Shown piece after piece: positions 26,106-62,163 of a DNA stretch of 64,000 bases. A program made the translations under genes and the position numbers. Each line of letters opens with the position of its first letter. The stretch's first letter is position 1. Below the pieces are notes generated by a model. It was not told the DNA's origin, searched no databases, and was given only the letters and a program-made list of their open reading frames with translations. Source of the DNA: an uncultured bacterium (GTDB taxonomy: Bacteria > Babelota > Babeliae > Babelales > RVW-14); contig CAVXAT010000002.1 in NCBI GenBank assembly GCA_963759805.1, forward strand, positions 5,532 through 69,531. The letters are read 5' to 3'.

Positions 26106-26211
26106 ACGCAGTCACCCATTTGCAAATAAAGAATTTATAAATTAATCTTGTTAGTAATCTAAGTAGAATATTGTGAGGTTATATTTTAATATTTTTTTGG
26201 GAGGTTATTTC

Positions 26212-30335: not shown

Positions 30336-30416
30336 TTCGACAGGCTCCCAGACTTCGCCCTTCCCACTCCGCTCAGGTAGCTCCGAGGGACAGGTCGTGG
30401 CTACGCCGGGCACGGC
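30336..30416 (-). repeat. 81-bp GC-rich dispersed repeat, copy A (5' of pepP)
   Basis: The reverse complement matches 41411-41491 with about 5 mismatches: GCCGTGCCCGGCGTAGCCACGACCTGTCCCTCGGAGCTACCTGAGCGGAGTGGGAAGG.CGAAG.CTGG..GCCTGTCGAA. Confidence 0.9.
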
Positions 30417-30435
30417 AGGACGAGCGCCATGAAGT

Positions 30436-30471
30436 AGGCGCGCTCGTGGTGAGCTCGTCGAACCATCACCC
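30436..30471. repeat. GC-rich dispersed repeat (GCGCTCGTGGTGAGCT.GTCGAACCATC.CCC), copy 1
   Basis: Near-identical cores at 36141-36176 and 48262-48296. Confidence 0.85.
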
Positions 30472-39630: not shown

Positions 39631-40476
39631 TTAGTCGTCAAGGCCAAATGGATGGTATCCCCATCTTCTTAGTTCTGGGCGTCCAAAGAAAAAACTTACA
39701 GGCAGCTTAATAAATAAATCATAAGCACAACGCAATCCAATTATAACCCCAAAAAGCCATCCACCAAAACGTAAGCCACTCAATCCAAGAAATGTTCCCA
39801 GATACTGTAATCCCGAAATTGCAGTCCATAATCTTGAGACCGTATAGTGAAAGGAGATTCGAGAAAATACATCCTCCAATGCAAAACCGGCCAATCTCAA
39901 TCTCTTATTCGCGGCATCTCCAAGAGCATCGCTTGATGTGAGATATAACATTATTCCGCATAATAAACCCTCTAAAACACATCTAATTAAAACTTTTGTT
40001 GTTGGCTCAGCATTAGCTGTAGAATTAGTAATCCAAGAGGTTATTGATGACCCTAACTCCCAAGGAGCAGCAAGTAATTTCTTAAGAGCACTGACTGCTG
40101 CCTGGCGATTAGCAGGCACTGCTGCTGCAGAGGTACTCGCACCAGGAGTAAGAACATTGCCTAATGCCCTGCGATTAGCAGGTACTTCCGCTGTAGGTGT
40201 ACTCGCAACAAGAGTAAAAGCTTTGCCTCCTGCCCTACGATTAGCAGGTACTTCCGCTGTAGACGTACTCGCAACAGGAAGCCTTTTGACTTCCTCAACA
40301 GAAGAAGTTTGCGTTGCATACGTAACAGCGCTGCTGTGATAATCCTTCTGTTTCTTCTGGGAAGAATCCTTCTGGGAAGCATTCTCATCTTTTTTCATGG
40401 CATTTAAGTCAGAACTCAAAAGGCCCATACTCAACCCTGCACCCACCAATAAAAACACAAATATATTCTTTTTCAC
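39631..40476 (-). CDS. Hypothetical secreted/membrane protein, family 'B' (paralogue-like of 37299-38420)
   Basis: GTG start preceded by GGAGGTTATC. Signal peptide KKNIFVFLLVGAGLSMGLLSS. Three repeats of ASTS(T/A)AEVPANRR, and C-terminal hydrophobic segments. Confidence 0.6.
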   Translation of the reverse strand: MKKNIFVFLLVGAGLSMGLLSSDLNAMKKDENASQKDSSQKKQKDYHSSAVTYATQTSSVEEVKRLPVASTSTAEVPANRRAGGKAFTLVASTPTAEVPANRRALGNVLTPGASTSAAAVPANRQAAVSALKKLLAAPWELGSSITSWITNSTANAEPTTKVLIRCVLEGLLCGIMLYLTSSDALGDAANKRLRLAGFALEDVFSRISFHYTVSRLWTAISGLQYLGTFLGLSGLRFGGWLFGVIIGLRCAYDLFIKLPVSFFFGRPELRRWGYHPFGLDD

Positions 40477-40705
40477 GATAACCTCCATATTTAATAAAAC
40501 TAAAAAAACCACCATCTTTTTAAACTAAAATTTATCACTTGTAATATTATACTAGCAGACAAAAATACTAAAATCAAAGGCCCCCACCCCATTGCAAACT
40601 TGAAAAACAAAAAATATACTCTATCATCACATAAGATTTTAAATAAATTATTAAATAAACTATCCAATTGTGTGTTAGGAATTAGATGTGTGTGTTAGGA
40701 ATTAG

Positions 40706-42778
40706 ATGTCTGAATCATTGACAGAAAGTAGCTTGAAGTTTTGGGAAAAGCAGGCTCAAAAATTACCTTGGTTTAAAAAATGGAATCATGTTCTAGCATG
40801 GAATGAACCATTTGCACACTGGTTTGTTGGCGGTCAAATAAATGCCTCATACGCATGTCTAGATATTCACATTAAAAACGGATTGCAGGACAAAACAGCA
40901 ATCATCTGGGAAAGTGAGAATGGTAGCTCACAAACTCTCACATACGGCCAACTTTATGATCAAGTAAATAAATTTGCCAGTTTTTTACAAACACAGGGTG
41001 TTAAAAAGGGCGACATCATCGTCATTTATCTTCCAATGATTCCTGAAGCAATTGTGGCCATGCTGGCAGTGGCACGGCTTGGGGCAACGCATTCAGTAGT
41101 GTTCTCAGGCTTTAATACAACGGCATTAAAAGATAGAATTGTCGACACTCAAGCCAAATTCGTAATTACAACTGATGCGGCATTTTATAGAAACAAAAAT
41201 ATTGTCCCGAAATATGTTGTATCAGACGCAATCAGACAGATTAGCCAGACTGCGCATGACAATGCAGCGCAAGCAAATTTTGTTAAAAAAGTTATTGTAA
41301 TTAAGCGAACAGAAAATTCAATAACTATAAATCCCGATCTTGATGTTATTTACGACCCAAACACCTCAACGGGTCCGATGGAACCTAGCCATGCGGAATT
41401 TGTTCCCGCCGCCGTGCCCGGCGTAGCCACGACCTGTCCCTCGGAGCTACCTGAGCGGAGTGGGAAGGACGAAGCCTGGATGCCTGTCGAATCCAATCAC
41501 CCTCTTTTTATTTTATATACATCCGGAACTACAGGAAAACCCAAGGGCATCGTCCACTCAACCGGCGGATATTTAACTTATGTTTATTCAACAATTAAAT
41601 GGGCTTTTAATATCAGCAAAGATTCAATTTACTGGTGCACGGCAGACATTGGGTGGATTACGGGGCATTCGTACGTAGTCTACGGCCCCCTCATGCACGG
41701 GGCAACAATTTACATCCGCGAGGGCGCACCTGACTGGCCAACTCAGGATGTCTGGTGGAAGGCAATTGAAAAGCATAAAATTTCAATTTTTTACACATCC
41801 CCAACGGCATTACGTATGTTCATGAAAATGGGTAACGAGAATATTTTAAAACACGATTTATCCAGTTTAAAAACGCTTGGTTCGGTTGGCGAACCGATAA
41901 ACCCTGAAGTCTGGCGATGGTTCAATGATGTTATCGGACAAAAAAGGTGTCCGATAATTGATACGTGGTGGCAGACGGAAACAGGTGGTTTTATGATCTC
42001 TCCAACCGCAGGACTTAATCCTACCACAGAGCTTAATCCAATTGCAGAAATAAAACTTAAACCCGGGTCCGCAACCTTTGCATTACCGGAAATTGATGCT
42101 GACATTGTTGATTCAGGCGGACAATCCGTACCACCCGAAACCAAAGGGTTTCTTGTAATCAAAAAGCCTTGGCCGGGAATGGCAATTGGAATTCATAACA
42201 ATCCACAAGCATTTCGTGAGATTTATTGGTCAAAGTTCCCAAGCATGTATTATTCAGGCGATTATGCAATAAAAGATTCCGAAGGGTATTTCTGGTTACT
42301 TGGCCGAGCAGATGAAGTATTAAAAATCTCCGGCCATAGAATTGGAACATCAGAAATTGAAAGCATAACACTTGAACATGAAGCAATTGCTGAAACTGCA
42401 GTTATCGGAATTCCTGATGAGATAAGAGGAGAAGCAATAATTATATTCTCGATTCTCAAAACAAGTTTCACCGTGAGCATTAGCACTGAACACGAAGTAT
42501 TAAAACACGACGTATTAAAACACGACGTGTTGGAACACGAAGTGTTCAAGCAAGAAATCTTGCAAAAAATCAGAACTCAGATTGGTGCATTTGCAACTCC
42601 AAAAGAGATTCACTTTGTTGAAAGTTTACCAAAAACCCGTTCGGGGAAAATAATGCGTAGACTGCTTAAAGCAGTTGTGCAGGGTCAAGCAATCGGAGAC
42701 CTGTCCACATTGGAAGATGGAACGTCGATTGAAGAAATTCAAGCAATTTATAATATGATTAAGAAACAGTTGGGATAA
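40706..42778 (+). CDS. acs: Acetyl-CoA synthetase (AMP-forming), carrying two in-frame repeat insertions
   Basis: YTSGTTGKPKG, WWQTETGG and SLPKTRSGKIMRR. Insertions lie at 41411-41491 (dispersed 81-bp repeat) and 42488-42547 (4 x 15-bp tandem repeat). Confidence 0.95.
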   Translation: MSESLTESSLKFWEKQAQKLPWFKKWNHVLAWNEPFAHWFVGGQINASYACLDIHIKNGLQDKTAIIWESENGSSQTLTYGQLYDQVNKFASFLQTQGVKKGDIIVIYLPMIPEAIVAMLAVARLGATHSVVFSGFNTTALKDRIVDTQAKFVITTDAAFYRNKNIVPKYVVSDAIRQISQTAHDNAAQANFVKKVIVIKRTENSITINPDLDVIYDPNTSTGPMEPSHAEFVPAAVPGVATTCPSELPERSGKDEAWMPVESNHPLFILYTSGTTGKPKGIVHSTGGYLTYVYSTIKWAFNISKDSIYWCTADIGWITGHSYVVYGPLMHGATIYIREGAPDWPTQDVWWKAIEKHKISIFYTSPTALRMFMKMGNENILKHDLSSLKTLGSVGEPINPEVWRWFNDVIGQKRCPIIDTWWQTETGGFMISPTAGLNPTTELNPIAEIKLKPGSATFALPEIDADIVDSGGQSVPPETKGFLVIKKPWPGMAIGIHNNPQAFREIYWSKFPSMYYSGDYAIKDSEGYFWLLGRADEVLKISGHRIGTSEIESITLEHEAIAETAVIGIPDEIRGEAIIIFSILKTSFTVSISTEHEVLKHDVLKHDVLEHEVFKQEILQKIRTQIGAFATPKEIHFVESLPKTRSGKIMRRLLKAVVQGQAIGDLSTLEDGTSIEEIQAIYNMIKKQLG
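41411..41491 (+). repeat. 81-bp GC-rich dispersed repeat, copy B, in frame inside acs (encodes AVPGVATTCPSELPERSGKDEAWMPVE)
   Basis: Matches the reverse complement of 30336-30416. 81 bp is 27 codons with no stop. It lies just upstream of the conserved PLFILYTSGTTGKPKG block. Confidence 0.9.
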
Positions 42779-48198: not shown

Positions 48199-48261
48199 AA
48201 AACCCCCTTGGTTTTTGTTATCAACTAGAACTCTTCTGTAACTATGCACTTTTTACTAGCC

Positions 48262-48306
48262 CGCTCGTGGTGAGCTTGTCGAACCATCGCCCTATGGGCG
48301 ACGGGC
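48262..48306. repeat. GC-rich dispersed repeat, copy 3 (with intact TCGCCC-tat-GGGCGA hairpin)
   Basis: CGCTCGTGGTGAGCTTGTCGAACCATCGCCCTATGGGCGACGGG, intergenic between grpE and pssA. Confidence 0.85.
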
Positions 48307-49390: not shown

Positions 49391-52300
49391 ATGAAAAAGA
49401 TTTTTCATGTTTTTTCGATGTTACTGTTGTTAGGTTCGTTACAAGTTGATCTTTGCGCAATGCAGGAACCAGATGATGCAACGACTCCCGTTGAAATACC
49501 AGTAGATCATCCAAATTCCGGCCTGATAAACGGCCAGAGCATCTGTTATCTAAACGCTGTAATTCAATGTCTTTCAAATCTTAAAACTTTCAGAGAAAAA
49601 TTGTTAGCCCACGAAGACACTTATCAGAACAATCCTCTTGTTTTAAATTTAATCAGATTATTCAAAGACTTAAGAACAACCACAGAACCTGCAATACAAA
49701 ATGACACCTTGATTGGCCATGTAAAAACGTTAATCACAAATCAATCAGGAAATGCACGAGAACACTTTCAAGATGCGGATGAAATTCTAACTCTGTTGTT
49801 AGGACAAATTAACAAACCAAACAAAATTTCTTTAGAGTTACAACTTGATCAGAAAGTTAAATGCCTTGGAGCTCATGGTGCAGCCGGTTGTCAGCACGAA
49901 TCCCCAAAACATGAGACGCATGAAACAATTGCATTACCACTTGATGAAATTGCCACTCAAAATACACTTCAAGCATTGCTTGAAAGCTTTTTTACATCAT
50001 CATTCGCACATGATTATGTTTGTGATGGTTGTGGTAAAAAAAATACATCTTTTAAAACTTCTAGAATTTCAAAAAACCAAGATGAATTAATTATCACGTT
50101 AAAAAGATTCAATTCAGATGGGACCAAGATAGATACATCTATTTCATTTCCAATGGAACTCGATTTAAAGCCTTATTCAACAGATGGGCTAAAACAACAA
50201 GCCGGCGTAGATCTTTCATATGAATTAGTTGGTTTTGTTTGTCATGGCGGTAACCATTATATTTCATTTGTAAGAGATTTTGGAAATGGGGAATGGTACA
50301 TGTATAACGATTCGGCAGTCAGCGATGAAATAAATTTGCAACTTATACAAGGGATTACCACGACAGGTAGTTTTTCACTAAATTCTCAAATTTTCACACC
50401 ATACATTTTGTTTTATCAAAAAAATGGAATCGGGGGGCAAACGCTTGCTCATCCAACAGCACAACAATCTGTAGATCAAGATGAAGGCGAAGATTGGGAT
50501 TCATCAGATGGCGAGGATGAACTTCAGCCGCCAACAACTAAAGGCTTTTTTAGCTGGTTTCTTGGATGGGCTACCGGTAACAACCAAAGAGAAGACGAGC
50601 GAAGAAAACAAGAAGAGGTTAAATTGCAAGAAGAGGCGATAAAGAAACGTCAAGAGGAGAAACTAAGGATGCGAAGGGAAACTAGACTACAAGAAGAAGT
50701 GATAGAAAAACGCCAAAACCTAGGACTCATGAAAGTCGAAGCACTCCCATATTTAAATTCAGTCGTACAGTGTCTTTCGAATCTTAAAAAATTTAAGACT
50801 AAACTATTTGCAAGTGAAAATGATTATAAAGATGATTTTTTAATTCTTAGCCTTATTAATCTTATCAAAAGACTGAAGAATTCTAGCGAATCATTAGGAA
50901 ATCAAGATTTTGTAGAGCAAGCAAAGATTTTGGTGCAACAAAGTAAAAATAATGAAGTTGCACTTCAGGTGGCAGATGAATTTTTAAATTTGTTATTTGA
51001 TCGTCTGCATACCCAAGACATGGAACCTCTTAATCTCCTAATTAATATAATTACCCAGTGCATAAAAAACAAAGATATATCAGGTTGCGAATATTCTTTA
51101 GATGAAGATGGAGTTGTGCAACCCAAGACAAGCCTATGTTTTAAAGAATTAAAAAGTGTCCAAGAAATTTTGGCAAAGCAATTTTCACCTTCTTTTGATA
51201 AAGGGTACACCTGCAAATGTTGTCATAAAGCTGGAACTTCTGTTATTACACAGAAATTTTTACGCTGCCCTTCCGAATTAATAATTTCTTTACAACGATT
51301 TGATTCATCTGGAAATAAAGATTTATCGCCAGTTATTTTACCATTGATACTTGATTTGACCCCTTATCTTAGCCATGAATTACTACAACAAATCGATCAG
51401 GCTCCGTATGAATTAGTGGGCATTGTTTGTTGCAATCGAAACTCTCAATATTATTCTTACATGAAAAATATTGCATCAGATAAATGGTTCCGGTACAACG
51501 ATGAGTCCGTTGTAGAGGTCAGCAATCAAGAAATTAAAACGCTGGCAGATTCCGGAATAGATTCGCAAAATTTTGTGCCATACATTTTATTTTATGAATT
51601 AAAGGAGTCCGAATGCCATACAAGTGCATCTCAAGCGCAACAAAGTTCAACTGCAACGAAAGATCAAAGATCAAACGCTAAAAACACACAAGAAATAATG
51701 GCTCAAATGACGAAACTTTGGAATATAAAGAAGCAACAAGAACGGGACCTTAAACGTGCTCAGGGCGTTGCAAAATCGGCTGATAAAAATCTAGTTAATG
51801 CGCAGTTGGATGGAGCCGATTTAACCGATTTGGATTTGAATGGGGCAGATTTAACGGGTGCGTCTTTAATCGGTGCAACATTGGTTAGAACAAAATTGAA
51901 TGGCACAATTTTGGCCAATGCAAAGTTAAATAATGCAATTATTTCGGATGTTCAATTATGCAATGCGACACTAAAAAACACAGATTTGAATAATTCAACA
52001 ATAACGAATATAACCGCTCATAACATAACTATCTCAGATGGTACAAAATTTGAGAATGCAACAATAAGCTCGCTAAATCTAAAAAATATCAAACTACAAA
52101 ATGTGTCTTTTGCAAATGCAACATTAAAAAATATCACATTTTCAACCTCATTAATTGATCATGTAAATATGGCACACATACAAGCTGAGGAGTTATATTT
52201 AAATGAATCTTCGCTGACAAACATAGATTTCAGCAGGGCTTGCATTGTAGGTCTTGATATAAGCAATGCAAACATCATAGGAGATTGGTTAAATTTCAGA

Positions 52301-52981
52301 TATGCAACGATAAAAACGGGGTGCATTAGGGGAACAACCACATCTAGAAGACCTAGCCCTGGCGAACGCTCAGATGGCATCACAGAAAAAGAAAATACAG
52401 GACTAATAATGGATACAGTAGGCGTTTCAACACTTGTGACATCTACAGCTTTTGGTACTGTTACTATTCCTATTCCGATTGTTGGATCTGCCGCTGGATT
52501 TTTCTATGGATTGTTTTTGGTTGGAGTTGAGCTTATCATTCACGATGAATACCTCGACTCAAAAAAAGATTTTGGCGCTTCAAATATTAACAGCATTTTG
52601 CTCAATTCCGATTTTTATGGAGCATCATTACAAGACGTGATTGTGCAACATGTAAAGCTTGGTAATTGTATGAATATTGGAAGAATTAGAAAAGCAGTTG
52701 GAACCAATTTTGATAACATTGTAAGTAGCAATCCAAAGGATTTGGACGATTTAAGACACAAGGGCGCTTGTGTAAATGAAATTCCATCAGACGAATTTAA
52801 AGTACTATGGCCTACAAAAGGAAACGATCAGAAAGTTTTTTGGGTCAAGCTACTTGCTGGTGCTGCGCATGGAACCCTCTCAGGCACCATATCAAAAGTT
52901 GAGACAAATTTACGGGACAAACAACAAGAGGCAAAGTATAAGTCTTTTATATCTGAAGAAATACAAAAAACAAGAAAATAA
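49391..52981 (+). CDS. Signal-peptide protein with tandem USP/UCH (peptidase C19) deubiquitinase-like domains, pentapeptide repeats and a bilobed hydrophobic segment
   Basis: Domain 1 has the Cys box GLINGQSICYLNAVIQCL, zinc-ribbon CxxC pairs, the His box YELVGFVCHGGNHYISFV and WYMYNDSAV. Domain 2 has EALPYLNSVVQCL (Cys replaced by Pro) and YELVGIVCCNRNSQYYSY (His lost). Residues ~800-960 are A(D/N)LxX-type pentapeptide repeats. The hydrophobic hairpin is VGVSTLVTSTAFGTVTIPIPIVGSAAGFFYGLFLVGVELII. Confidence 0.85.
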   Translation: MKKIFHVFSMLLLLGSLQVDLCAMQEPDDATTPVEIPVDHPNSGLINGQSICYLNAVIQCLSNLKTFREKLLAHEDTYQNNPLVLNLIRLFKDLRTTTEPAIQNDTLIGHVKTLITNQSGNAREHFQDADEILTLLLGQINKPNKISLELQLDQKVKCLGAHGAAGCQHESPKHETHETIALPLDEIATQNTLQALLESFFTSSFAHDYVCDGCGKKNTSFKTSRISKNQDELIITLKRFNSDGTKIDTSISFPMELDLKPYSTDGLKQQAGVDLSYELVGFVCHGGNHYISFVRDFGNGEWYMYNDSAVSDEINLQLIQGITTTGSFSLNSQIFTPYILFYQKNGIGGQTLAHPTAQQSVDQDEGEDWDSSDGEDELQPPTTKGFFSWFLGWATGNNQREDERRKQEEVKLQEEAIKKRQEEKLRMRRETRLQEEVIEKRQNLGLMKVEALPYLNSVVQCLSNLKKFKTKLFASENDYKDDFLILSLINLIKRLKNSSESLGNQDFVEQAKILVQQSKNNEVALQVADEFLNLLFDRLHTQDMEPLNLLINIITQCIKNKDISGCEYSLDEDGVVQPKTSLCFKELKSVQEILAKQFSPSFDKGYTCKCCHKAGTSVITQKFLRCPSELIISLQRFDSSGNKDLSPVILPLILDLTPYLSHELLQQIDQAPYELVGIVCCNRNSQYYSYMKNIASDKWFRYNDESVVEVSNQEIKTLADSGIDSQNFVPYILFYELKESECHTSASQAQQSSTATKDQRSNAKNTQEIMAQMTKLWNIKKQQERDLKRAQGVAKSADKNLVNAQLDGADLTDLDLNGADLTGASLIGATLVRTKLNGTILANAKLNNAIISDVQLCNATLKNTDLNNSTITNITAHNITISDGTKFENATISSLNLKNIKLQNVSFANATLKNITFSTSLIDHVNMAHIQAEELYLNESSLTNIDFSRACIVGLDISNANIIGDWLNFRYATIKTGCIRGTTTSRRPSPGERSDGITEKENTGLIMDTVGVSTLVTSTAFGTVTIPIPIVGSAAGFFYGLFLVGVELIIHDEYLDSKKDFGASNINSILLNSDFYGASLQDVIVQHVKLGNCMNIGRIRKAVGTNFDNIVSSNPKDLDDLRHKGACVNEIPSDEFKVLWPTKGNDQKVFWVKLLAGAAHGTLSGTISKVETNLRDKQQEAKYKSFISEEIQKTRK

Positions 52982-53006: not shown

Positions 53007-53993
53007 ATGAAATTCAAAAATGTTTTTTCACTCATTTTAATTTTAAACGCTGCAAACTTATTTGCATATGACCAACAAACATATAAAGAACTGCTTGCTG
53101 GTGGCAAAAGGTTTGCAAATGCAGACTTGTCAAAAGCAAAAATCGAAAATATGGATTTATCAGATGTTACTTTTGTGAATGTAAATTTAACTGATGCATG
53201 CTTTCATAATTCGATGCTTACAAATGTCACATTTGATTCATGTAATTTATCGGGTTCTATATTTTATGATATGGTATTTAATAATTCCAAAATTTTAAAC
53301 AAATCTAATTTGGCACATTCTATTTTTGAAAAGGTAATTTTTGATAGCTCAGAAATAAATAATTCATCAATGGCTCATGTCAAATTGTCAGAAACTGATC
53401 TTGTGGCAGCTAGAATTTACAATGTTGACATGTACAACACCAAGCTTGAGTCTGTAAATTTTTCTGCGTGTACCCTGGAGCATATAAATTTCAGGGCAGC
53501 CAAACTCGAATTGGTAAGAATCTACGAAACAACTCAGATTGGTACTGATCTGATCTTTGATCAAGCAACTCTTTCACAGTGCTGTTTCCTAGGCCAAAAG
53601 GAACGCAGTTCAGTTATAGGGGGCGACTTTTTTGGCACGACTATTATGCATAGCTACTTTGTAAATCTAAATTTTGATAACTGTACACGCTTAGATCAAG
53701 TTGGCGATGCAACAAAAAGTTTATTCGACAATATTTCCTCTATTAGTCCAAATGACCTAAGAATATTTGCTGAAAGGCTGAAATTTAAAGAGGCAAAAGT
53801 CAATGGCGAATGGACTAAAGACAAAGACTATTGGAGTAAATTTGAATCTCATTATTGCAAGCAATTTTTTGCGGCATTGTGGCCATCAGTAGCTTATTTA
53901 GGTACTTTCGCCTTTGTTGGATTGGTTTGTCCAGCTGCTGCACCTATAGCAGCATCTGCAGTATCTGGAGGAGTATCTGCAGTAGTTAACTAA
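53007..53993 (+). CDS. Signal-peptide pentapeptide-repeat protein with a C-terminal hydrophobic tail (paralogue of the C-terminal part of 49391-52981)
   Basis: FANADLSKAKIENMDLSDVTFVNVNLTDACFHNSMLTNVTFDSCNLSGSIF... Shares FDNI(S/V)S..P.DL with the USP protein. The tail is FFAALWPSVAYLGTFAFVGLVCPAAAPIAASAVSGGVSAVVN. Confidence 0.8.
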   Translation: MKFKNVFSLILILNAANLFAYDQQTYKELLAGGKRFANADLSKAKIENMDLSDVTFVNVNLTDACFHNSMLTNVTFDSCNLSGSIFYDMVFNNSKILNKSNLAHSIFEKVIFDSSEINNSSMAHVKLSETDLVAARIYNVDMYNTKLESVNFSACTLEHINFRAAKLELVRIYETTQIGTDLIFDQATLSQCCFLGQKERSSVIGGDFFGTTIMHSYFVNLNFDNCTRLDQVGDATKSLFDNISSISPNDLRIFAERLKFKEAKVNGEWTKDKDYWSKFESHYCKQFFAALWPSVAYLGTFAFVGLVCPAAAPIAASAVSGGVSAVVN

Positions 53994-54033: not shown

Positions 54034-57000
54034 ATGAAATTTAAAAATATTTTGATTTATCTTTTTGCTGTAGGGCAGGTTGGTTTTGCATGGGGAATGG
54101 GAAGAACACAATTTGCTAGTTCGTGTACAGAGCTCTGGTTTCAGGGAAGCAGTATACAGGACCAGGCACGTCCCACAACCTCTAGTGAATGGGGTATCAG
54201 AGTTAATTTACCTTCACGCAGCAGGTACACGAGCGAATCCTCATATTCACGGTCTAGCGGTCCTTTGAGAAAATGTTTTGCTAATTCACCAACGAAGGCT
54301 GTATTTAATTTACCTAATCTTGTGAGTTCTCATCAGTATAAAACTCTTGATAAGGCATTTAGTGCACTACTAAATTCAGACGCTACTGTGAAAGCTGTAC
54401 AAAATGACCCGAATGTTCTTGTACAATTGTATTCCGCATTGGCACAACTTCATGAGCAAATGGCTTTTCAGGATAAAAAGAACACTTTGGTTACAGATGG
54501 TACACACTGGTTTTTACAAAAACCAAATGGAAAACGGCTCGATTTAACATCAAAAGTGTCCAATGCCTCTTATGCAATAAACCAATTTGTCTATGAAATT
54601 AAAGATGAATTAGAAAGCAAAGGAATCCCTTTTGATCTTGTTTTGCGCAGCCATCGCGAATGTGTTGGTTTTTCTAAAGATGGCAAAAAAGTAATTCATC
54701 GATACTCTGGTCTCCCCGGATCCGGGCAGGAATATGTTCTTGATTTGATTGTATCCACGGAAGATGATGGATCCAAAAAGATTACTCACAAGATTAAGAA
54801 TAAAAATAAAGTAAATGATAAAAATTTACGAAAACCAAAAGATGTACAACCGCCAGCTCCCACAATTCCACATGCTCCAACTCCCACTCCAGATATCCTA
54901 TACAAGGGCGTAATTTTATCCCAACAGCCTCTCTTGATTGATACAAGTGTTGATGCACGTTGTAAAGGCACAATAAAAACTTACATGGACTCTCCTAAAT
55001 TTGCCGAAAAGGCATATTCTCTTTTTAATTCCAAAGATGCATTTAGGGGAATCCGTTTTACAGAAAATGATTTTAATTTAACAGAGAGGAGTCCTGATGG
55101 AACACTTGTCTATATTGCAGGAGCTTTAGTGGAACACGAAGATGGCACGAAAGAAGCTGGCGCTATTAGAATTGTTGTAAAACCTAATCCAGAAATGCCT
55201 GAAATAAGAGAGATACATTCTTATGTTGGAGAATTAAATAAAGATGTATCCAATGGGTTGGATGTTAATCCGCTCACTCAGGACCGACCCGGCAAAAAGG
55301 ACGATGGCGTTTCTTCTGATCCTAAAATCTCTCCCACACCTAAACACATCTTTGATATGTCAAAGCTTTTAGATTCTGATCTTAAGCAGATTGACCTACA
55401 CCATTATATGTTGAATCAATCGACAAAACAATTTGTCAGATTTAACTCTCACATTGACAGCTTACAACAGGGTAGAGGAACACAAGCCGCAGATGGTTCT
55501 ACTACAAAACCCCAGCAAGGTCCTAATACTGGTGCAGCTGGTGATAGAAAAGACAAAATAGCTCCCGAAAACGAATATACAGAAGCAGGTCAAACGCATA
55601 AAAACCTTGCGGGTCAGCATCAACTTGAAACTCAAGATCAAGATGATGAATTGCCCAAACAAGAATCCTCTCAGGCAGGGGCAGCTAATGTTGACGCCAA
55701 AGCTGCCGAAGAGGCAGCTGCAGCTAAAGCCCAAGCTGAAGCCGAAGAAACAGCCGCCAAAGCAGCTAAAGAAGAAGCCGACGCTATGGCAAAAAAAGCA
55801 GTCGATAAAAAAATAGCATCTGAAGCCTCAGCAAAGAAAACCAGAAGATCTAAAGCCATCCTAGCTCAACAAAACAAAGATATAACCCAAAAATCTCTAC
55901 ACCAAGCTGAACAAATTGAAGCATTGGTAAATAAGGGGTTCACTAAAGATCTCGCAAAAATGAAAGTATGCGCACCCAGAGAATACAGTGCATTTGTTAA
56001 ATTGAGCGATAAACAGATTTTGCAACGTGAAGAGCTATCCACAGCTAAAACAGATGTAGGGGGCACAGCTAAGCCATCCCAGCCAGTTGAAATGTCACAA
56101 CCAATCAGACTCACACTTGCAGATCGTTTTCAACAAGCAACTTCTGTTGATTCAGGAACTCAAGGAAAACAACCAGCGCTTAATTTTTCGATAGAAGATC
56201 GAAACCGTGGATTCAAAGAGCGCATAGCACGCATGCAACAACACTCAACAAGCAGATTATCAGAACAACCAAAAGCACCTGTAATACCAGAAGTACCGGT
56301 AAAACCAGTTGAAACGCCAACTCAGGCACCACAACCGCAACAACCAACATTTATAGAAAGAATTAGAGAGCGTGCTGCTGAAGTTATTGAAATGGCCAAA
56401 ATACCAGCCCTGGAAACACTCAAAACCGTTGTGACATCTGCCACAGATAATCTTTTAAAATACTTTTTTACTTCCCCTCCCACCATGGACGGAAAACATT
56501 TCTTTGGTGAAGGCCCAGAAGAGACAAGATATACTCCATATTTGGATAGGCCACTACTAAATTTGCAAAGTAAATTGCATCCAGACATGGAAATGCAAGA
56601 CTCATCACAAAATCTAGCAACTGCAGCTGCTTCTTCTGGCGAACAGGAATATCCGATTATGTTCGATCCCACAGCTCGCCCAGTAAAAATAACGCACACT
56701 GGATATTCTTCATCTAATCCTACGGAAGTAGAAAAACCCTTTGTAATGCCTCACGATGTCGGCATTGAAGGACCAACTGCAACAACACAAACTGGTCACT
56801 TAAACCTGGAACAATTTAAACGCCACACAGACTACACGGCAAAGAAAAGTGCAGAATTGGCAGAGATTACTCGTGATAACCCAACGCTGCAAAATACCTG
56901 CAAATTTGTGGATGCTCTGAATAGATTTGCTAACTTATATGCAGAGGCTGATGATGGGGTTGGAGCAACCGCTTTGGGCAAAGCCGCACAAAACACATTG

Positions 57001-58032
57001 CGCAATGCACAAAGGGCTGCGACAGCATTGGGTAGAGGTGCAATTCGAGGTGCTGAGAAATTTGATCCCAAGGTTATGTTTGTTGCCAATGCAAAACTTG
57101 CAATGTTTGCAATTGGGGAAATTAGCAGGCAAGAAACTGTCGACCAGGCCTTTTTATCTTTCAATCCTGAACAAGCTGAGCAGGCGGCTTCGGCACATGC
57201 TCAACATTGCACAGAACAGTATCAAGCATTTTCAACGGCTGCCAAACAAACTCTTGAGCGGTTAAGGAGCATGCCATGGGAAGAAGTGCTTGAAAATGGT
57301 TCTGAGCTTGGTGTTGATCTTGTTATGCAAGGTGTGTTTATTAACGGACTGGGCAAACTTGGTGGAACAGCATTGCAGCGTTTTGCTGCATTAACATCGG
57401 ATTTAAATGAAATTGTCAAAGCTGAAAAAATAGCCGCTGCCACTGGAAAGGCTTCCGCTCAAATTACAGAGCTTGGGCAACAGGTTGCTGTTGTAGGTAA
57501 ACTTACTGAACAAGAGGGATCTGAAGTAGCAGGAAGAGTTGTTGGAATTATTAAAGATAATCCCGAGCTTATCCAGAGCGAATTTGGTTTTGTACAAACT
57601 GTAAGAGCTGTATCAAAAATTGAGCAAAAGCCACATTGGGAATCGCTTGCGCTTGACCCTGCCCATGGAAATAAAATAAGTATCAAAAGTATTGAGGAAG
57701 CTTTGGCTGGAATTGCTGCTGAAGAAAAAGGATTTTTACCAGGACCTATTAGGCGCGATCCGAGCGCAGCCGCAGAATTTATTGATACATTAGGAAGAGC
57801 TTGGGATGTTAAAACTCCACTATCACTTGCTCCCAATGGGCAACATGTTTTCAAAATCGACCAGGTATTTAGTAGTATCAAACGAGAACTAGGACTTGGC
57901 GAAAATGTCATCTTGAGTATGATTAAACTTAATAAAGAGGATGCGTTGTCTTTGATTGCAAAATTAAAAACAGAATTGTCAGCAGCTGAGATCGAAAAAA
58001 TTATTACTGTTTTTAGAGAGGACTTATTTTAA
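54034..58032 (+). CDS. Large secreted polymorphic-toxin-like protein (1332 aa) with a variable C-terminal toxin region
   Basis: GGAGGTTATC precedes the ATG. Signal peptide MKFKNILIYLFAVGQVGFAWG. About 900 aa have no family I recognise. The junction segment is duplicated at 58455-58691. The C-terminal ~130 aa carry a D-x7-DVK pattern. Confidence 0.7.
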   Translation: MKFKNILIYLFAVGQVGFAWGMGRTQFASSCTELWFQGSSIQDQARPTTSSEWGIRVNLPSRSRYTSESSYSRSSGPLRKCFANSPTKAVFNLPNLVSSHQYKTLDKAFSALLNSDATVKAVQNDPNVLVQLYSALAQLHEQMAFQDKKNTLVTDGTHWFLQKPNGKRLDLTSKVSNASYAINQFVYEIKDELESKGIPFDLVLRSHRECVGFSKDGKKVIHRYSGLPGSGQEYVLDLIVSTEDDGSKKITHKIKNKNKVNDKNLRKPKDVQPPAPTIPHAPTPTPDILYKGVILSQQPLLIDTSVDARCKGTIKTYMDSPKFAEKAYSLFNSKDAFRGIRFTENDFNLTERSPDGTLVYIAGALVEHEDGTKEAGAIRIVVKPNPEMPEIREIHSYVGELNKDVSNGLDVNPLTQDRPGKKDDGVSSDPKISPTPKHIFDMSKLLDSDLKQIDLHHYMLNQSTKQFVRFNSHIDSLQQGRGTQAADGSTTKPQQGPNTGAAGDRKDKIAPENEYTEAGQTHKNLAGQHQLETQDQDDELPKQESSQAGAANVDAKAAEEAAAAKAQAEAEETAAKAAKEEADAMAKKAVDKKIASEASAKKTRRSKAILAQQNKDITQKSLHQAEQIEALVNKGFTKDLAKMKVCAPREYSAFVKLSDKQILQREELSTAKTDVGGTAKPSQPVEMSQPIRLTLADRFQQATSVDSGTQGKQPALNFSIEDRNRGFKERIARMQQHSTSRLSEQPKAPVIPEVPVKPVETPTQAPQPQQPTFIERIRERAAEVIEMAKIPALETLKTVVTSATDNLLKYFFTSPPTMDGKHFFGEGPEETRYTPYLDRPLLNLQSKLHPDMEMQDSSQNLATAAASSGEQEYPIMFDPTARPVKITHTGYSSSNPTEVEKPFVMPHDVGIEGPTATTQTGHLNLEQFKRHTDYTAKKSAELAEITRDNPTLQNTCKFVDALNRFANLYAEADDGVGATALGKAAQNTLRNAQRAATALGRGAIRGAEKFDPKVMFVANAKLAMFAIGEISRQETVDQAFLSFNPEQAEQAASAHAQHCTEQYQAFSTAAKQTLERLRSMPWEEVLENGSELGVDLVMQGVFINGLGKLGGTALQRFAALTSDLNEIVKAEKIAAATGKASAQITELGQQVAVVGKLTEQEGSEVAGRVVGIIKDNPELIQSEFGFVQTVRAVSKIEQKPHWESLALDPAHGNKISIKSIEEALAGIAAEEKGFLPGPIRRDPSAAAEFIDTLGRAWDVKTPLSLAPNGQHVFKIDQVFSSIKRELGLGENVILSMIKLNKEDALSLIAKLKTELSAAEIEKIITVFREDLF

Positions 58033-58033
58033 T

Positions 58034-58372
58034 ATGGCAAACCTGATACTGAAAAATGACAAAGTTATATGGAAGTGTTCCAACTCCATGCTGGCTCTTA
58101 TTTATGAAACAATTATGGGAATTATGAATGATAAAAAAATGAATAAAGAGTCCGCAGTTTGCAAATTTGTGGAAAAATTAAATCAGGATATCTATGGAGA
58201 TGGATGTATTTCTATTGATCTGGATGATTATCTAAAAAACAATGACGATATACTTGTTTTTGCAAAGTTATTTAAGGAATCAATAGAACAGCTTAAGAAA
58301 AAATTTGAATGGCAAGAAGAACTATATAGCCACACATTAAAATTATATCAACAGCTGACATGCCCTGATTAA
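58034..58372 (+). CDS. Candidate immunity protein for the 54034-58032 toxin (112 aa)
   Basis: It starts 2 nt after the toxin stop, is small and cytoplasmic-looking, and is followed by a terminator. The assignment is positional only. Confidence 0.5.
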   Translation: MANLILKNDKVIWKCSNSMLALIYETIMGIMNDKKMNKESAVCKFVEKLNQDIYGDGCISIDLDDYLKNNDDILVFAKLFKESIEQLKKKFEWQEELYSHTLKLYQQLTCPD

Positions 58373-58406
58373 TTATCATAGAGCATAATGTTTTTGTCAT
58401 TTTCAT

Positions 58407-58441
58407 GCCTCGGCATGTATAAAAGTGCTGGGGCTTTTTTG
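58407..58441 (+). terminator. Intrinsic terminator after the toxin-immunity pair
   Basis: GCCUCGGCA pairs with UGCUGGGGC (9 bp including 2 G-U pairs), with a 10-nt loop, then TTTTTT. Confidence 0.65.
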
Positions 58442-58461
58442 CTGCACTCGCTACCGTTGGC

Positions 58462-59688
58462 ATGGAAGGACCAACTGCAACAACGCAGACTGGTCGCTTA
58501 AACCTGGAACAATTTAAACTCCACACAGACTACACGGCAAAGAAAAGTGCAGAATTGGCAGAAATTACTCGTGATAACCCAACGCTGCAAAATGCCTGCA
58601 AATTTGTGGATGCTCTCAACAGATTTGCTAACTTGTACGCAGAGGCTGATGATGGGGTTGGAGCAAACGCTTTGGGCAAAGCCGCACGACAAACAGTGCA
58701 TTATGCCGAAAATATAACAAAAATATTTGGCGGTCACATTCAAGAAGCTCTTCTTGGCGTTTCAGATTCAGGCCTGGATCACCTTGACTTTGGAACAGAA
58801 GCTGCGTCTCATCCACAAGAAACTTTAGTAAATATGGCTAATGGCCTCAAAGAGCTTACAATTTTTACTGCAAAAATTATGGCAATAGGAGAGATGTCTC
58901 TAGATAATTCAGAATTAGCACTTGATGCATTTAATAGAGAAATTAGGCCAACGGTGCAACCATTGTACGATAGACTCGAAGCTATGACGGGACCGGAAAG
59001 AACCAGATTTATAACACGTACATTCTGTAATCTTTTTTTGGGGAAATATCTATCGATTGGCTTGCAAGCGGCATCCCTTGGTATATCTGTACCAAACATT
59101 CAGCAATTTAGGTTAGCAACTGCGGCAGCAAAAGAGTTTTATGGATCTTTGATTAATGAAGCAGAAATAGTAAGTAGAATTCCAAATTTTGCGAATTTGC
59201 CACAAAATATGCAAACTCTTTTATCTCCTCTTATATCGATGACTGAGAATCCTGGTAAGTTGGTTGAATTAGGAATCAACAAAGGCCAAGAATTTGCGAG
59301 AAGGATTGCAATAGCACTTGGGCAAAATCCAGAGTTAGTCGTTACAGAAGGCTCATTTGATGGTGCTGTGGCAAGACTTGTGGGTGATTTCGAAAAAGAA
59401 GGTGCGGCGGCAGCTGCAGCCGATGATTTGGCAAGTTTTAGAAAAAGTGAGCGTGGAGCCTCTTCAGGTACTGCTGTTCAAGCTGAGCAGAGTTATGCTA
59501 AAATGTTTGAGCAGAGAATTAGCAAGATGCCAGTGGGTGAAAGAGTTGCAGCGGTGACAGAAGAGGCTCAAAGAATAGCTGCGGCTAGAGGATGGGAAAA
59601 AATGGGTCAAATATCTAGAAGAAATGGGGAAAGAATTGTTTACAAAGATAAAAATGCATCGAAACTTTATTCTGTGGATATATACTGA
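58462..59688 (+). pseudogene. Orphan toxin cassette (5' part): no signal peptide or delivery region, begins inside the conserved junction, and is truncated by an IS insertion at 59680/59681
   Basis: The first 76 aa are nearly identical to residues ~911-986 of the main toxin. No Shine-Dalgarno is visible. The reading frame runs into the IS left end after ...NASKLYSVD. Confidence 0.8.
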
Positions 59689-59770
59689 CCCCATAAAACT
59701 AGACAGTGCAACTTGAGAAAATAAGTACTTTAAAAATATTAGTTATAACAATGAGCCCGGGGGGCATTAA

Positions 59771-60046
59771 ATGAGTAACAAAGTAAGCAGAACCCACAGC
59801 AACAAATTTAAACTAAAAGTTGCATTGGCAGCTATAAAGGCTGATAGGCCAATAGCTGAATTATGCCAAGAATTTGCATTAGCGACAAGTCAAATTTATG
59901 CATGGAAAAAACGGCTTGAAGATCGAGGCATTGAAGTTTTTTCGAGTGAAAAAATGGCTGCAAAAAAAAGTTTAGATGTTGAAAAGTTTCATGTGATTAT
60001 AGGCAAGCTTATTGTAGAACGTGAGTCATTATTGCGGGCGCTTTAA
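59771..60046 (+). CDS. IS3-family OrfA-like HTH protein (extra or remnant copy)
   Basis: KFKLKVALAAIKADRPIAELCQEFALATSQIYAWKKRLE, a transposase_8-type HTH. It is a diverged paralogue of the next ORF, and no OrfB follows it. Confidence 0.7.
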   Translation: MSNKVSRTHSNKFKLKVALAAIKADRPIAELCQEFALATSQIYAWKKRLEDRGIEVFSSEKMAAKKSLDVEKFHVIIGKLIVERESLLRAL

Positions 60047-60147
60047 TGCAATAAACGCAAATGGATAAACTGTGTACAACGACAATAATAATGAATTAGC
60101 ATGAGAATGTTAAATCTAAAAATTTGCTTTACAAGAAAGGCATTCTC

Positions 60148-60426
60148 ATGAGTGATGACACGAAAAAAAGTCATGATGACAAGCTTAAACTTAAGGTGGC
60201 TTTAGCTATGATAAAGGCCGACAAATCAGTTGATACCATCTGTAGAGAATTTAATATTTCAACATGCCAAGCATATGCATGGAAGCAACACCTAGAAGAG
60301 CATGGCAACGAACTTTTTGCAGACAAAAGAAAAGTTAAAAAAGAAGAAACATATGACAAGATTTTGGCAGACCTTGAACAAGTAAAGGAAGAGCGCAATT
60401 TTTTAGTACAAGTGCTCAGTCGCTAG
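60148..60426 (+). CDS. IS3-family transposase OrfA
   Basis: MSDDTKKSHDDKLKLKVALAMIKADKSVDTICREFNISTCQAYAWKQHLE, then a leucine-zipper-like tail. Start set at the ATG; the track starts at an upstream TTG. Confidence 0.8.
   Translation: MSDDTKKSHDDKLKLKVALAMIKADKSVDTICREFNISTCQAYAWKQHLEEHGNELFADKRKVKKEETYDKILADLEQVKEERNFLVQVLSR
60399..60405 (+). promoter_or_regulatory. Candidate -1 programmed ribosomal frameshift heptamer (T TTT TTA) joining OrfA to OrfB
   Basis: In the OrfA frame the codons are AAT TTT TTA. The -1 frame is open from 60378 and runs into OrfB (…FFSTSAQSLDIQVRKQWIEHN…). An OrfAB fusion is the usual IS3 arrangement. Confidence 0.6.
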
Positions 60427-60434
60427 ATATCCAA

Positions 60435-61355
60435 GTGCGCAAGCAATGGATTGAGCACAACAACAAATTGAACTTGTCCAGAAAATGCGATCTGCTCGGT
60501 ATAAATCGAAGTAGCCTTTATTACAAGCCAAAGAAGGCCAACAACCAAGACGAGGTGATTATGGATGAGATACGCAACGAATATGAGAGACATCCATTTT
60601 ATGGATATCGAAAAATACACGAAGTTCTTATCGAAAAAAGCTTTAACCACAACATTAAAAGAACACAGCGGCTAATGACGTTGACAGGTCTTTGTGCAGT
60701 TGCCCCTTATAAAAAAACTAGCATTCCAAACAAGGAACACAAGGTGTACAAATATCTTTTAAGAGGATTACGAGTTTGCCGCCCAAACCAAGTCTGGAAA
60801 ACAGATATCACATACGTAAAAATAAGAGGTGGGTTTGTTTATTTGGTTTGTCTTATCGATGTTTTTAGTCGCAAGATTATGGGATGGGCATTGTCACCAT
60901 ATCTCGATACAGACGTTTGTCTTGAAGCATTGGAAATGGCTCTCGTACTCGGTAAGCCTGAGATTTTAAATAGTGATCAAGGGTGCCAGTTTACAAGTGA
61001 AAGATGGGTTGCTCGTTTAGAAAAAGAAGGTATCAAAATTAGTATGGATGGAATAGGTCGATGGGCAGACAACATCATTATTGAACGATTCTGGCGAACT
61101 ATTAAATATGAAGCACTGTGTTTTTATGTTCTTGAAAACATTGCTGAGACGCGATTAATTATAAAAAACTATATCAACTTTTATAATAGAGAACGCTTTC
61201 ACCAATCACTCGAATATAAAAAACCAGATGAAGTTTACTATGGAGCTATCATTGCAGTAGACCAATCTGATTTTACTTTCGAATCATTGGCTTTTGTATG
61301 TAATAGCAAAATCATCGTTCAACAAAATAAATCAATGGGGATACAAATGGCCTGA
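60435..61355 (+). CDS. IS3-family transposase OrfB (DDE/rve catalytic domain)
   Basis: WKTDITYV (D), LNSDQGCQFTS (D), NIIIERFWRTIKYE (E) and YNRERFHQSL. Confidence 0.9.
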   Translation: MRKQWIEHNNKLNLSRKCDLLGINRSSLYYKPKKANNQDEVIMDEIRNEYERHPFYGYRKIHEVLIEKSFNHNIKRTQRLMTLTGLCAVAPYKKTSIPNKEHKVYKYLLRGLRVCRPNQVWKTDITYVKIRGGFVYLVCLIDVFSRKIMGWALSPYLDTDVCLEALEMALVLGKPEILNSDQGCQFTSERWVARLEKEGIKISMDGIGRWADNIIIERFWRTIKYEALCFYVLENIAETRLIIKNYINFYNRERFHQSLEYKKPDEVYYGAIIAVDQSDFTFESLAFVCNSKIIVQQNKSMGIQMA

Positions 61356-61409
61356 TAAAAATTCTGAAATATAAGTTAAAAATTTGTCTTGACAATGGGG
61401 GTCACTATA

Positions 61410-61534
61410 ATACACAGCATGGACGATTTGAAATATTAAATGAAGAAGGAAAACATTTGGGAGAAGTTGATTTTGATTTCAATTTTACAAAAGAACGTGA
61501 TGCATCAGGTAGCCACGATTTAAATACGCGATAA
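61410..61534 (+). pseudogene. Orphan toxin cassette (3' part): C-terminal half of a colicin-E3-like cytotoxic rRNase domain
   Basis: In-frame continuation TQHGRFEILNEEGKHLGEVDFDFNFTKERDASGSHDLNTR*. Compare colicin E3, recalled from memory: WDSQHGELEGYRASDGQHLGSFDPKTG. Confidence 0.75.
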
Positions 61535-61549
61535 GAAAGGTTTAAAATA

Positions 61550-62095
61550 ATGGTAGACATTGTTTCTAAAACAATCGATTATTTTTACAAACAAAAAAAT
61601 TATAATGCCTTTAAGGAATGTTGTAAAAATCCATTGAATTTGTTTCTGGAGTTACAGCAATATATAGATAGAAACGGATTAAATTCGTCTGGAGGACCCG
61701 ATAATAAGTACTACCCGGCCAGAGATTGGCACATACATTTTAATGATTATAAGAAAGGTGAATTTGAAATTTCTTATACAACAGTTCTTAATATTTCAAA
61801 ACTTGCACCATTATATTATGTTCAACATGAATTTTCAGTTAAAGATAAAGATGATGATAGAATGACTCCTGTCCTAGATGGTTTTAGTAATCACCCATAT
61901 ACAAAGAAACAGTTTGTTTTGCATGATAAAATTTCATCTGTTTTAAATAAAAAAGGGTATCATGAACTCGAGTATGTTGACATAAGTGAGGCGGTAGAAG
62001 GTTTTAAAATGCCAGAGGGGGTAACTATCTTTGGGCCTAATGTTACAGTTGAAGATTTATTGTTTGCAGATTTATTTGATGTACGTAATAAGTAG
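61550..62095 (+). CDS. Candidate immunity protein for the orphan E3-like toxin (181 aa)
   Basis: It starts 15 nt after the reconstructed toxin stop, has no signal peptide, and is followed by a terminator. The assignment is positional only. Confidence 0.45.
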   Translation: MVDIVSKTIDYFYKQKNYNAFKECCKNPLNLFLELQQYIDRNGLNSSGGPDNKYYPARDWHIHFNDYKKGEFEISYTTVLNISKLAPLYYVQHEFSVKDKDDDRMTPVLDGFSNHPYTKKQFVLHDKISSVLNKKGYHELEYVDISEAVEGFKMPEGVTIFGPNVTVEDLLFADLFDVRNK

Positions 62096-62130: not shown

Positions 62131-62163
62131 GCCCTGGCCGGTAAAACGGCTGGGCTTTTTTTG
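62131..62163 (+). terminator. Intrinsic terminator after 61550-62095
   Basis: CCCUGGCCG-guaaaa-CGGCUGGG stem (with G-U pairs), then CTTTTTTT. Confidence 0.6.

Follow-up and report, generated by a model that had tools for sequence, protein, structure and literature searches.

A probable Sec-exported polymorphic toxin/immunity locus in a Dependentiae bacterium, with an older module displaced by a newer one

In a 64,000-nt stretch of contig CAVXAT010000002.1 (hereafter, the window), the region between positions 54034 and 62095 very probably represents a polymorphic toxin/immunity locus of a Dependentiae bacterium, likely a member of the Babeliales, whose toxin is exported by the Sec pathway and in which one toxin module has been displaced by a newer one. 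The evidence that carries this reading consists of the anatomy of the genes, a long direct repeat, an insertion sequence (IS), the swapping of C-terminal tails throughout a family of homologous proteins, the pairing of toxins with small open reading frames (ORFs), and the synteny with a related genome in which the locus has what appears to be its ancestral form; toxicity, and its neutralization by the products of the small ORFs, are predicted from these patterns. A previous sequence-only reading of this DNA had recognized the gene grammar of polymorphic toxin systems, and all its elements were found in our analysis: a constant part, variable C-termini, abrupt switches between the two, co-traveling small ORFs, and orphans.

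The active module and the displaced orphan

The main toxin gene (54034-58032; this and all other features of the locus are on the plus strand) encodes a protein of 1332 amino acids (aa), and has a GGAGG Shine-Dalgarno (SD) box 5 nt before its ATG. The product begins with a Sec-type signal peptide (MKFKNILIYLFAVGQVGFAWG; residues 1-21, 54034-54096), whose n-, h- and c-regions were recognized by inspection. The same start, with 17 of 24 residues identical (71%), is found in the orthologous toxin of the one close relative genome that was identified in a search with alignment A4, the contig JBAZAX010000006.1 of a Candidatus Babeliales metagenome-assembled genome (MAG), referred to hereafter as L001. 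The gene agrees with its earlier description as encoding a 1332-aa product with a signal peptide, and, to the extent that the shape of the N-terminus can be judged by eye, this product has what is expected of a polymorphic toxin: several domains and, at the N-terminus, a trafficking signal for secretion, which is conserved in the L001 ortholog. No transmembrane segments were recognized in the protein at a Kyte-Doolittle mean >1.6; it would be exported by Sec, which is the export route named for the Dependentiae isolate C. destructans, where signal peptides are present in 44% of the coding sequences (CDS) (PMC6561590), and would then cross the outer membrane by a further route. Searches of Pfam, NCBIfam, PADLOC and the PDB sequences with the whole protein gave no match, and a word-indexed search with the full sequence retrieved only the protein itself, which is the single member of its cluster in 5.8 billion proteins.

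The C-terminal toxin domain (residues 1201-1332; 57634-58032) has two homologs, P0045 (77% identity) and P0046 (47%), recognized with the last ~135 aa, and in the three homologous sequences E1222, D1251 and D1258-V-K1260 are invariant. In the AlphaFold2 (AF2) model of this domain (pLDDT = 75, pTM = 0.67), which is of the α/β type, E1222, D1251 and D1258/K1260 sit on a helix and two adjacent strands, as in PD-(D/E)xK nucleases: this arrangement is a hint that the main toxin is possibly a nuclease of that type. Since a Foldseek search with the model returned nothing significant (best E = 0.09; two restriction enzymes at E = 0.16-0.23), and the domain had no sequence match, a profile of its three sequences against the PDB also being empty, nuclease activity should be regarded as a guess based on the motif.

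A single base separates the TAA stop codon of the toxin gene from a 112-aa ORF (58034-58372), whose position directly after the toxin stop had already been noted, and whose product, a predicted cytoplasmic protein, is the candidate for the cognate immunity protein of the main toxin. This ORF shares 50% identity (E = 1e-32) with the one that follows P0045, a toxin of the same type, in another contig (L002, described in the next section); a search for contigs encoding it returned as its only match a Logan contig of 1.7 kb. The active operon is closed by an intrinsic-terminator-like hairpin with a T-run (58407-58434, in a feature that extends to 58441; 10 pairs, six of them GC, and TTTTTT), in agreement with the terminator proposed at this place by the sequence-only reading.

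The orphan module starts shortly after this terminator with a repetition of part of the main gene. The two copies of this direct repeat of 256 nt, which is the only long repeat of such kind in the window, are 91% identical in DNA, and 92% identical over 76 aa in protein: copy 1 (56758-57013), the putative recombination tract, is at the 5' end of a conserved domain that we call the pre-toxin domain, while copy 2 (58456-58711) is the start of the orphan. The near-identical segment of ~230 bp that had been reported to open the orphan corresponds to this repeat, with the length and identity just given. Directly upstream of the orphan start at 58462 there is neither an SD-like sequence nor a promoter-like site, as had been claimed; the additional claim, that the cassette then passes into a different C-terminal domain, was only partly accurate, because a diverged version of the pre-toxin domain comes first, with a match to positions 12-293 of the domain profile at E = 1.5e-39. 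On account of this match, what seemed to be divergence after the sequence ALGKAA is to be understood as one more, distantly related copy of that domain. The notion that residues ~900-1200 of the main protein are variable had to be abandoned in favor of a conserved domain of ~300 aa.

The orphan is interrupted. Its 5' piece (58462-59680), comprising a full, diverged pre-toxin domain and the first half of a ribosomal RNA nuclease (rRNase) domain of the colicin E3 type, is separated from its 3' piece (TQHGRFEILNEEGKHLGEVDFDF...NTR*; 61413-61534), which by blastn is collinear with L001 9792-10443, by an insertion sequence of the IS3 family (59681-61409); for this reason the apparent orphan ORF (58462-59688, 408 aa) ends early. 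The element is recognized as IS3-like by its helix-turn-helix (HTH) orfA-like ORFs and its rve integrase ORF, with matches to HTH_Tnp_1 / HTH_28, rve and HTH_21, and it displays all the features of the family: an HTH orfA, a DDE/rve orfB, terminal inverted repeats, although imperfect (TATACTGACCCC / GGGGTCACTATA), and a 3-bp target duplication (ATA). The rve ORF (60435-61355) is preceded by a tandem pair of diverged orfA-like HTH ORFs (59771-60046 and 60124-60426), and yet the element has matching ends and a clean 3-bp duplication; it is perhaps a composite member of the IS3 family, or one with an internal duplication.

Removal of the IS and of one ATA yields a frame of 446 aa that ends in ...KLYSVDTQHGRFEILNEEGKHLGEVDFDF...NTR, with a stop codon at 61532-61534. 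The repaired orphan matches the Pfam family PF09000 Cytotoxic at 23.5 bits (cut-off 22; E = 6.9e-5), although its direct PDB sequence match to colicin E3 is weak (E = 0.28). The sequence V-D-T-Q-H-G-R-F-E can be read directly in it, and contains a D-x-x-H-x-x-x-E motif, aligned to that of colicin E3, which colicin E3 uses for catalysis. This combination of a PF09000 score above the gathering threshold with the D/H/E motif identifies a colicin-E3-type rRNase domain in the orphan only. The insertion point of the IS is between D406 and H409 of the motif; with the catalytic motif of the rRNase split in this way, the orphan toxin must be considered dead.

An intact ORF of 181 aa (61550-62095), which is the immunity candidate for the E3-type toxin, is found 15 nt after the restored stop of the orphan. 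Its product is 59% identical (E = 2e-77) to that of the ORF located directly after the E3-type toxin in L001, and has no match to an immunity family in Pfam. Thus, the orphan is indeed followed by its own small ORF, as stated in the sequence-only reading, which had however overlooked the element by which the orphan is split. At the right end of the IS a promoter-like site (61384-61411; TTGTCT, 16-nt spacer, TATAAT; 10 matches out of 12) points outward into the tail of the orphan toxin and the 181-aa ORF, and may drive the orphan immunity gene; a terminator-like hairpin (62133-62154, in a feature that extends to 62162) ends what would be the ancestral operon. Neither the 112-aa nor the 181-aa ORF encodes a signal peptide, as read from the sequences, which is what one expects for cytoplasmic immunity proteins, and both are downstream genes that covary with the type of toxin, as immunity genes do in polymorphic toxin systems.

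The history of this arrangement can be read by comparison with L001, in which the order of the genes (UCH, pentapeptide, 328-aa pentapeptide, toxin, 181-aa ORF, a few further genes, and a coiled-coil gene) is syntenic with that of the window, with 74-83% DNA identity in the flanks. The L001 toxin has almost the same signal peptide as the main toxin, a C-terminus of the E3 type (Cytotoxic match in P0002 / L001), and no second module. By blastn the 3' half of the L001 gene aligns to the orphan of the window and not to the 3' half of the main gene, and the orphan protein aligns collinearly, at 51% identity, to the 446 C-terminal residues of the L001 toxin. This identity over the whole length of the orphan, along with that between the 181-aa ORFs, indicates that the orphan is the ancestral module. 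Its first 76 aa, on the other hand, are 92% identical to the main gene and only 49% identical to L001; this tract was recently duplicated or homogenized within the lineage of the window.

As judged from gene order and from these identities, the comparison shows that an ancestral E3-type module was displaced by a new module in the genome of the window. The ancestral arrangement would have consisted of the pre-toxin domain with a colicin-E3-type 16S rRNase, followed by the 181-aa immunity gene. On the simplest history, an incoming cassette of about 1.4 kb, containing the rest of the pre-toxin domain, the new toxin, the 112-aa gene and the terminator, would then have entered by recombination across the opening ~250 nt of the domain, leading to duplication of this tract, and the old module would have been pushed downstream as a promoterless orphan. 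A later insertion of the IS3-family element into the catalytic motif would have killed the orphan rRNase, leaving behind it an intact immunity gene that is probably still expressed, and that would protect against relatives carrying the E3-type toxin. The base composition gives no clear sign of a foreign origin for the new cassette.

The pre-toxin domain and the variable tails of its family

An exhaustive HMMER search with residues 1-1200 of the main protein against 1.84 billion representative proteins (cut-off E ≤ 1e-3) yielded 43 proteins, a count that includes the query and the orphan of the window. All the matches, with the exception of a single low-complexity one, fall on residues ~880-1200, and only P0002 extends further upstream, to residue 729: residues 1-728, on which only the low-complexity match was obtained, are therefore almost without detectable relatives. 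Residues 22-728 (54097-56217) contain both the Pro-rich and the Ala/Glu/Lys low-complexity linkers that had been pointed out in the sequence-only reading; ~140 aa of this N-terminal region are weakly similar (27%) to the L001 ortholog, and the remainder is not. This hypervariable, fast-evolving region presumably handles surface attachment, or the binding of a receptor or target. The segment that comes next (residues 729-899, including GPEETRYTPYLDRPLLNL; 56218-56730) is common only to the syntenic Babeliales toxin (P0002 / L001), with 44-49% identity.

The pre-toxin domain proper (residues ~900-1200; 56731-57633) was defined by HMMER, by an iterated jackhmmer profile in which it is clearly delimited, and by alignment A2, as a conserved all-helical domain of ~300 aa that about 40 protein clusters have in common. 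It has no Pfam match in any member of the family, and no trafficking or pre-toxin domain of Pfam was found in the 41 family members scanned. A word-indexed search with alignment A2 returned 3 proteins only, probably because its filter, which scores just 8000 candidates, was swamped by low-complexity words. The earlier statement that the protein has no known delivery domain is accurate with respect to Pfam, NCBIfam and the PDB, but requires the correction that the last ~300 aa of the delivery region constitute a conserved family. The AF2 model of the domain (mean pLDDT = 72, from an alignment of 25 sequences) displays a short β-hairpin followed by about a dozen helices, and has no relative in the PDB according to Foldseek (best match E = 0.35). 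We considered and rejected the possibility that the domain is a pore-former, as the matches of that kind, including those with ClyA, YaxB and SmhB, were generic helical ones at E > 1; the domain may have a role in translocation or entry.

The N-terminal regions ahead of the pre-toxin domain range in the homologs from 0 to 1250 aa, and several of them are visibly signal-peptide-like at their start. From reading the sequences, a second conserved N-terminal domain appears to be common to P0008, P0009, P0013, P0018-P0020, P0023 and P0024, with the motif ...F.AY..F..YA..LP.Y.DFI..L..KI..DK.FRK...V.GF.Y...; this domain has no Pfam match at E ≤ 1e-3 and is missing from the window protein.

The tails found after the pre-toxin domain are ~100-150 aa long and mutually unrelated. 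Pfam recognizes among them RNAse_A_bac (n = 3), DUF4258 (n = 2), EndoU_bacteria, Cytotoxic and Ntox35 (n = 1 each), while the others are unassigned; the family thus combines a constant region with C-terminal toxin domains that differ from protein to protein, as is typical of polymorphic toxins. Over the domain, P0032 and P0044 share about 95% identity, but past LLEEAAPA[LI]K no similarity is left between them; the tail of P0044 recurs in P0029, whose scaffold is in other respects only a distant relative of that of P0044. It can be seen from these comparisons that the switch point for the entire family is located at the 3' end of the pre-toxin domain, near K.NPEL, and not at ALGKAA, which is ~200 aa further upstream. 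Our homolog search consequently bore out one half of the earlier prediction that the C-termini switch after the junction IEGPTATTQTG...ALGKAA: the switching is abrupt, but its position had been placed too close to the N-terminus. The commonest tail in the family, FEDFLV..L.G.GSFKV..REFDG..GN.WYEAKSG, resembles a nuclease of the E...D...E-x-K type and has no Pfam match at E ≤ 1e-3; it occurs in L002, at 5554-5934 and 6591-7121, and also in P0005, P0009, P0012, P0015, P0030 and P0041.

Contig L002 provides a more extended example of an orphan array. In it, a 1001-aa signal-peptide toxin carrying the pre-toxin domain is followed by five promoterless orphan cassettes, each of which opens with a ~300-nt repeat of the 3' end of that domain; a small co-oriented ORF comes after each of cassettes 1-4, and none after cassette 5 (EndoU type). 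Orphan cassettes that carry a tract of the constant region, another hallmark of polymorphic toxins, are in this way represented by one case in the window and five in L002. P0045, the third of the five cassettes, pairs the toxin type of the window with a homolog of the 112-aa ORF, and the new module of the window appears itself to be a mobile toxin/immunity pair.

Known systems, target of the toxin and alternative explanations

Polymorphic toxins that depend on Sec and the type II secretion system (T2SS), in which a signal peptide is followed by lineage-specific constant domains (MAFB-N, Microscilla-N, APD1/2), have been described (PMC3482391, Table 1), and full toxin/immunity systems were noted in the amoeba endosymbiont Odyssella (PMC3482391). 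As this signal-peptide-only class of Zhang et al. (PMC3482391) is the best fit to the locus, the kind of system that we observe is already known. In its representatives (MafB/MafI of Neisseria, with MAFB-N/DUF1020; Microscilla-N; APD1/APD2 of Amoebophilus; PMC3482391, PMC4287609), as in the window, the signal peptide is the sole recognizable export signal, the constant region is restricted to a lineage, the C-termini are polymorphic, the immunity gene is immediately downstream, and promoterless orphan cassettes contain a piece of the constant region. The window protein and its family differ from these representatives in having no DUF1020, APD or Microscilla-N match, in belonging to Dependentiae, and in that the conserved part is a helical domain of ~300 aa adjoining the toxin, while the N-terminus is hypervariable. 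Furthermore, no gene similar to MafA, which accompanies MafB, was recognized, and the position directly upstream is occupied by the gene of a secreted pentapeptide-repeat protein.

The same grammar of constant region, junction, variable C-terminus (CT), immunity gene and displaced orphans is shared by the CdiA/CdiI system of contact-dependent inhibition (CDI) and by the Rhs systems with orphan arrays, in which short homologous tracts are the substrates for recombination, as they are in the window (PMC9086364, PMC4927057). The duplicated tract of the window, however, is at the start of the 300-aa domain and not at a short peptide motif. A variable sub-domain between the constant part and the putative nuclease of the window recalls the entry domain of CdiA-CT, which likewise lies between constant part and nuclease. 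None of the hallmarks of CDI, which are the two-partner secretion (TPS) domain, filamentous hemagglutinin (FHA) repeats and VENN, had a Pfam or NCBIfam match in the main protein, or a Pfam match in the 41 family members, and no CdiB-like gene is present among the neighbors scanned; the hallmarks of Rhs (RHS/YD repeats, PAAR) and of MafB (DUF1020) also had no match in either the main protein or the family members. As all these features are absent, the main protein falls outside the CDI, Rhs and MafB families.

A likeness of a different kind is that with colicin E3 and cloacin DF13. The orphan and the L001 toxin end, as those proteins do, in a PF09000 Cytotoxic domain with D-x-x-H-x-x-x-E, and the colicins too are multi-domain soluble proteins with a C-terminal nuclease and an immunity gene downstream. 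There is, nonetheless, no Pfam match to colicin translocation or receptor domains in the toxin, nor to E3/cloacin immunity in the 181-aa ORF; the window protein carries a signal peptide, which colicins do not have; and the immunity candidate, with its 181 aa, is roughly double the size of the protein that confers immunity to colicin E3.

While Sec-only delivery in intracellular bacteria and the cassette principle are already known, what is new here is the carrier domain, the phylum, and an unusually clear before-and-after record of displacement; in the literature searched we found no paper connecting Dependentiae or Babeliales with polymorphic toxins. Dependentiae (TM6) are widespread and almost uncultured parasites of protists, whose huge secretomes are mostly unannotated. 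The locus and its ~40 relatives place in this phylum a classical toxin/immunity arms race, complete with displaced cassettes and arrays of orphans, built on a carrier domain that is missing from current domain databases, and with no recognizable dedicated secretion system. A hidden Markov model (HMM) of the pre-toxin domain would flag toxin and immunity genes in Dependentiae MAGs, and, because both the ancestral and the derived state are available, the locus offers a clean natural example of module displacement.

A question raised by these results is whether obligate intracellular parasites fight co-infecting relatives or the organelles of their host. An intracellular context, which had been suspected from the sequence alone, fits both the closest relative, a Candidatus Babeliales MAG, and the presence of UCH, WD40 and pentapeptide genes near the toxin locus. 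We favor as target related bacteria that share the same host cell or vacuole, although a host or organelle target is possible. In its complete form this alternative holds that the toxins are effectors directed against the protist host or its bacterial-type organelles (for example, mitochondrial ribosomes), that the small ORFs protect the producer before export, and that the diversity of the toxins reflects an arms race with the host. It would suit a lineage that likely consists of obligate intracellular parasites of protists, and a neighborhood of eukaryote-type effectors (UCH deubiquitinase, WD40 and pentapeptide proteins). One member of that lineage, C. destructans, is surrounded by the mitochondrion of its host while it multiplies, and has many nucleases among its secreted proteins (PMC6561590); moreover, intracellular bacteria are known to turn polymorphic-toxin domains on their hosts (PMC3482391). 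We nevertheless consider it unlikely, because host-directed versions in the published survey are typically without neighboring immunity genes (PMC3482391), whereas here each toxin type travels with a dedicated small ORF; because an intact immunity gene that survives behind a dead orphan toxin, with a promoter-like site reading into it, makes sense chiefly as protection from the toxin of relatives; and because orphan arrays are a signature of within-species conflict.

A related proposal, to which we give only a small chance, is that the helical pre-toxin domain is a new, self-sufficient entry module, by which a protein exported through Sec alone could take nucleases across the envelope of neighboring bacteria. 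Since E3-type rRNases target bacterial-type ribosomes, such a module might even carry them into the surrounding mitochondria of the host. If true, this would mean that Dependentiae have a route of toxin delivery independent of secretion systems.

Several considerations weigh against the interpretation of the locus as a Sec-exported polymorphic toxin system directed at other bacteria. The signal peptide of the main toxin was judged by eye; toxicity, immunity binding and secretion are all predictions; and the activity of the main C-terminal domain, which is without a significant match in sequence or fold, has been guessed from its motif. The history of displacement rests on one comparison, as a metagenome scan with alignment A4 produced only L005, which is the same strain as L001, and no further independent close relative. 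The taxonomic placement of the window is indirect, being drawn from synteny and from the 74-83% DNA identity of its flanks to those of a Babeliales MAG. Finally, an obligate intracellular life entails few obvious bacterial competitors, and this weakens the case for an interbacterial target.

Some of the same observations would be compatible with a decaying remnant, that is, with a cassette and a repeat left by duplication in a pseudogenizing, IS-rich region, the main protein being perhaps a surface protein that is not a toxin. The destruction of the orphan toxin by the IS, the lack of a recognizable toxin fold in the main C-terminal domain, and the fragmented UCH gene of L001 could all be taken in this sense. 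The main gene, however, is an intact 4-kb ORF with an SD; the same pair of C-terminal domain and small ORF is kept, at 77% and 50% identity respectively, in an unrelated locus; bona fide toxin domains are found at the same position in family members; and the two copies of the repeat in this genome resemble each other much more closely (92%) than the orthologs do in this tract (49%), all of which makes decay very improbable. An artifact of assembly or binning, by which the junction between main gene and orphan would be a chimeric join of alleles from two strains, might be suspected in a contig that is apparently derived from a metagenome, because polymorphic loci that vary between strains are easily misassembled, but the chance of it is negligible, as 56835-58550, a stretch that covers this junction (3' end of the main gene, 112-aa ORF, terminator, and orphan start), matches an independent Logan assembly (L004) at 100%, the copies of the repeat differ at 9% of positions and each runs into unique sequence, and the layout is the standard orphan architecture seen in L002.

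Neighboring genes and other features of the window

A gene for a pentapeptide-repeat protein with a signal peptide is located directly upstream of the toxin gene in the window (53007-53993), in L001 (5382-6368) and in L002 (554-1732), where it is present even though the N-terminus of the L002 toxin looks unrelated on inspection. The 27 nt around the start codon of the window pentapeptide gene, comprising the ribosome-binding site and the codons for MKFKN, are 93% identical to the corresponding nucleotides of the toxin gene. These upstream proteins, which are only 26% identical to each other, with a similarity driven by the repeats, could be accessory or export partners of the toxins, as MafA is for MafB, or could belong to an expanded family of effectors.

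Further upstream, at 49391-52981, is the gene for a 1196-aa signal-peptide protein with two stretches matching UCH/USP deubiquitinases, and with pentapeptide repeats. The orthologous region of L001 (1891-5371) consists of two separate ORFs (704 and 430 aa), pointing to a frameshift or to pseudogenization in that genome. A WD40 β-propeller protein of 615 aa, encoded at 26173-28020, has internally repeated DNA.

Three other kinds of repeat were observed in the window. An element of ~40 nt, similar to repetitive extragenic palindromic (REP) sequences or miniature inverted-repeat transposable elements (MITE), with the sequence GCGCGCTCGTGGTGAGCT[C/T]GTCGAACCATC[A/G]CCC, occurs at 30432-30471, 36137-36176 and 48253-48292. 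An inverted repeat of 81 nt, 95% complementary, has its arms 11 kb apart (30336-30416 and 41411-41491), one of them inside an AMP-binding (acetyl-CoA synthetase-like) gene at 40706-42778. Lastly, a tandem repeat of 3 x 66 nt (40083-40280) is contained in a minus-strand ORF at 39631-40515.

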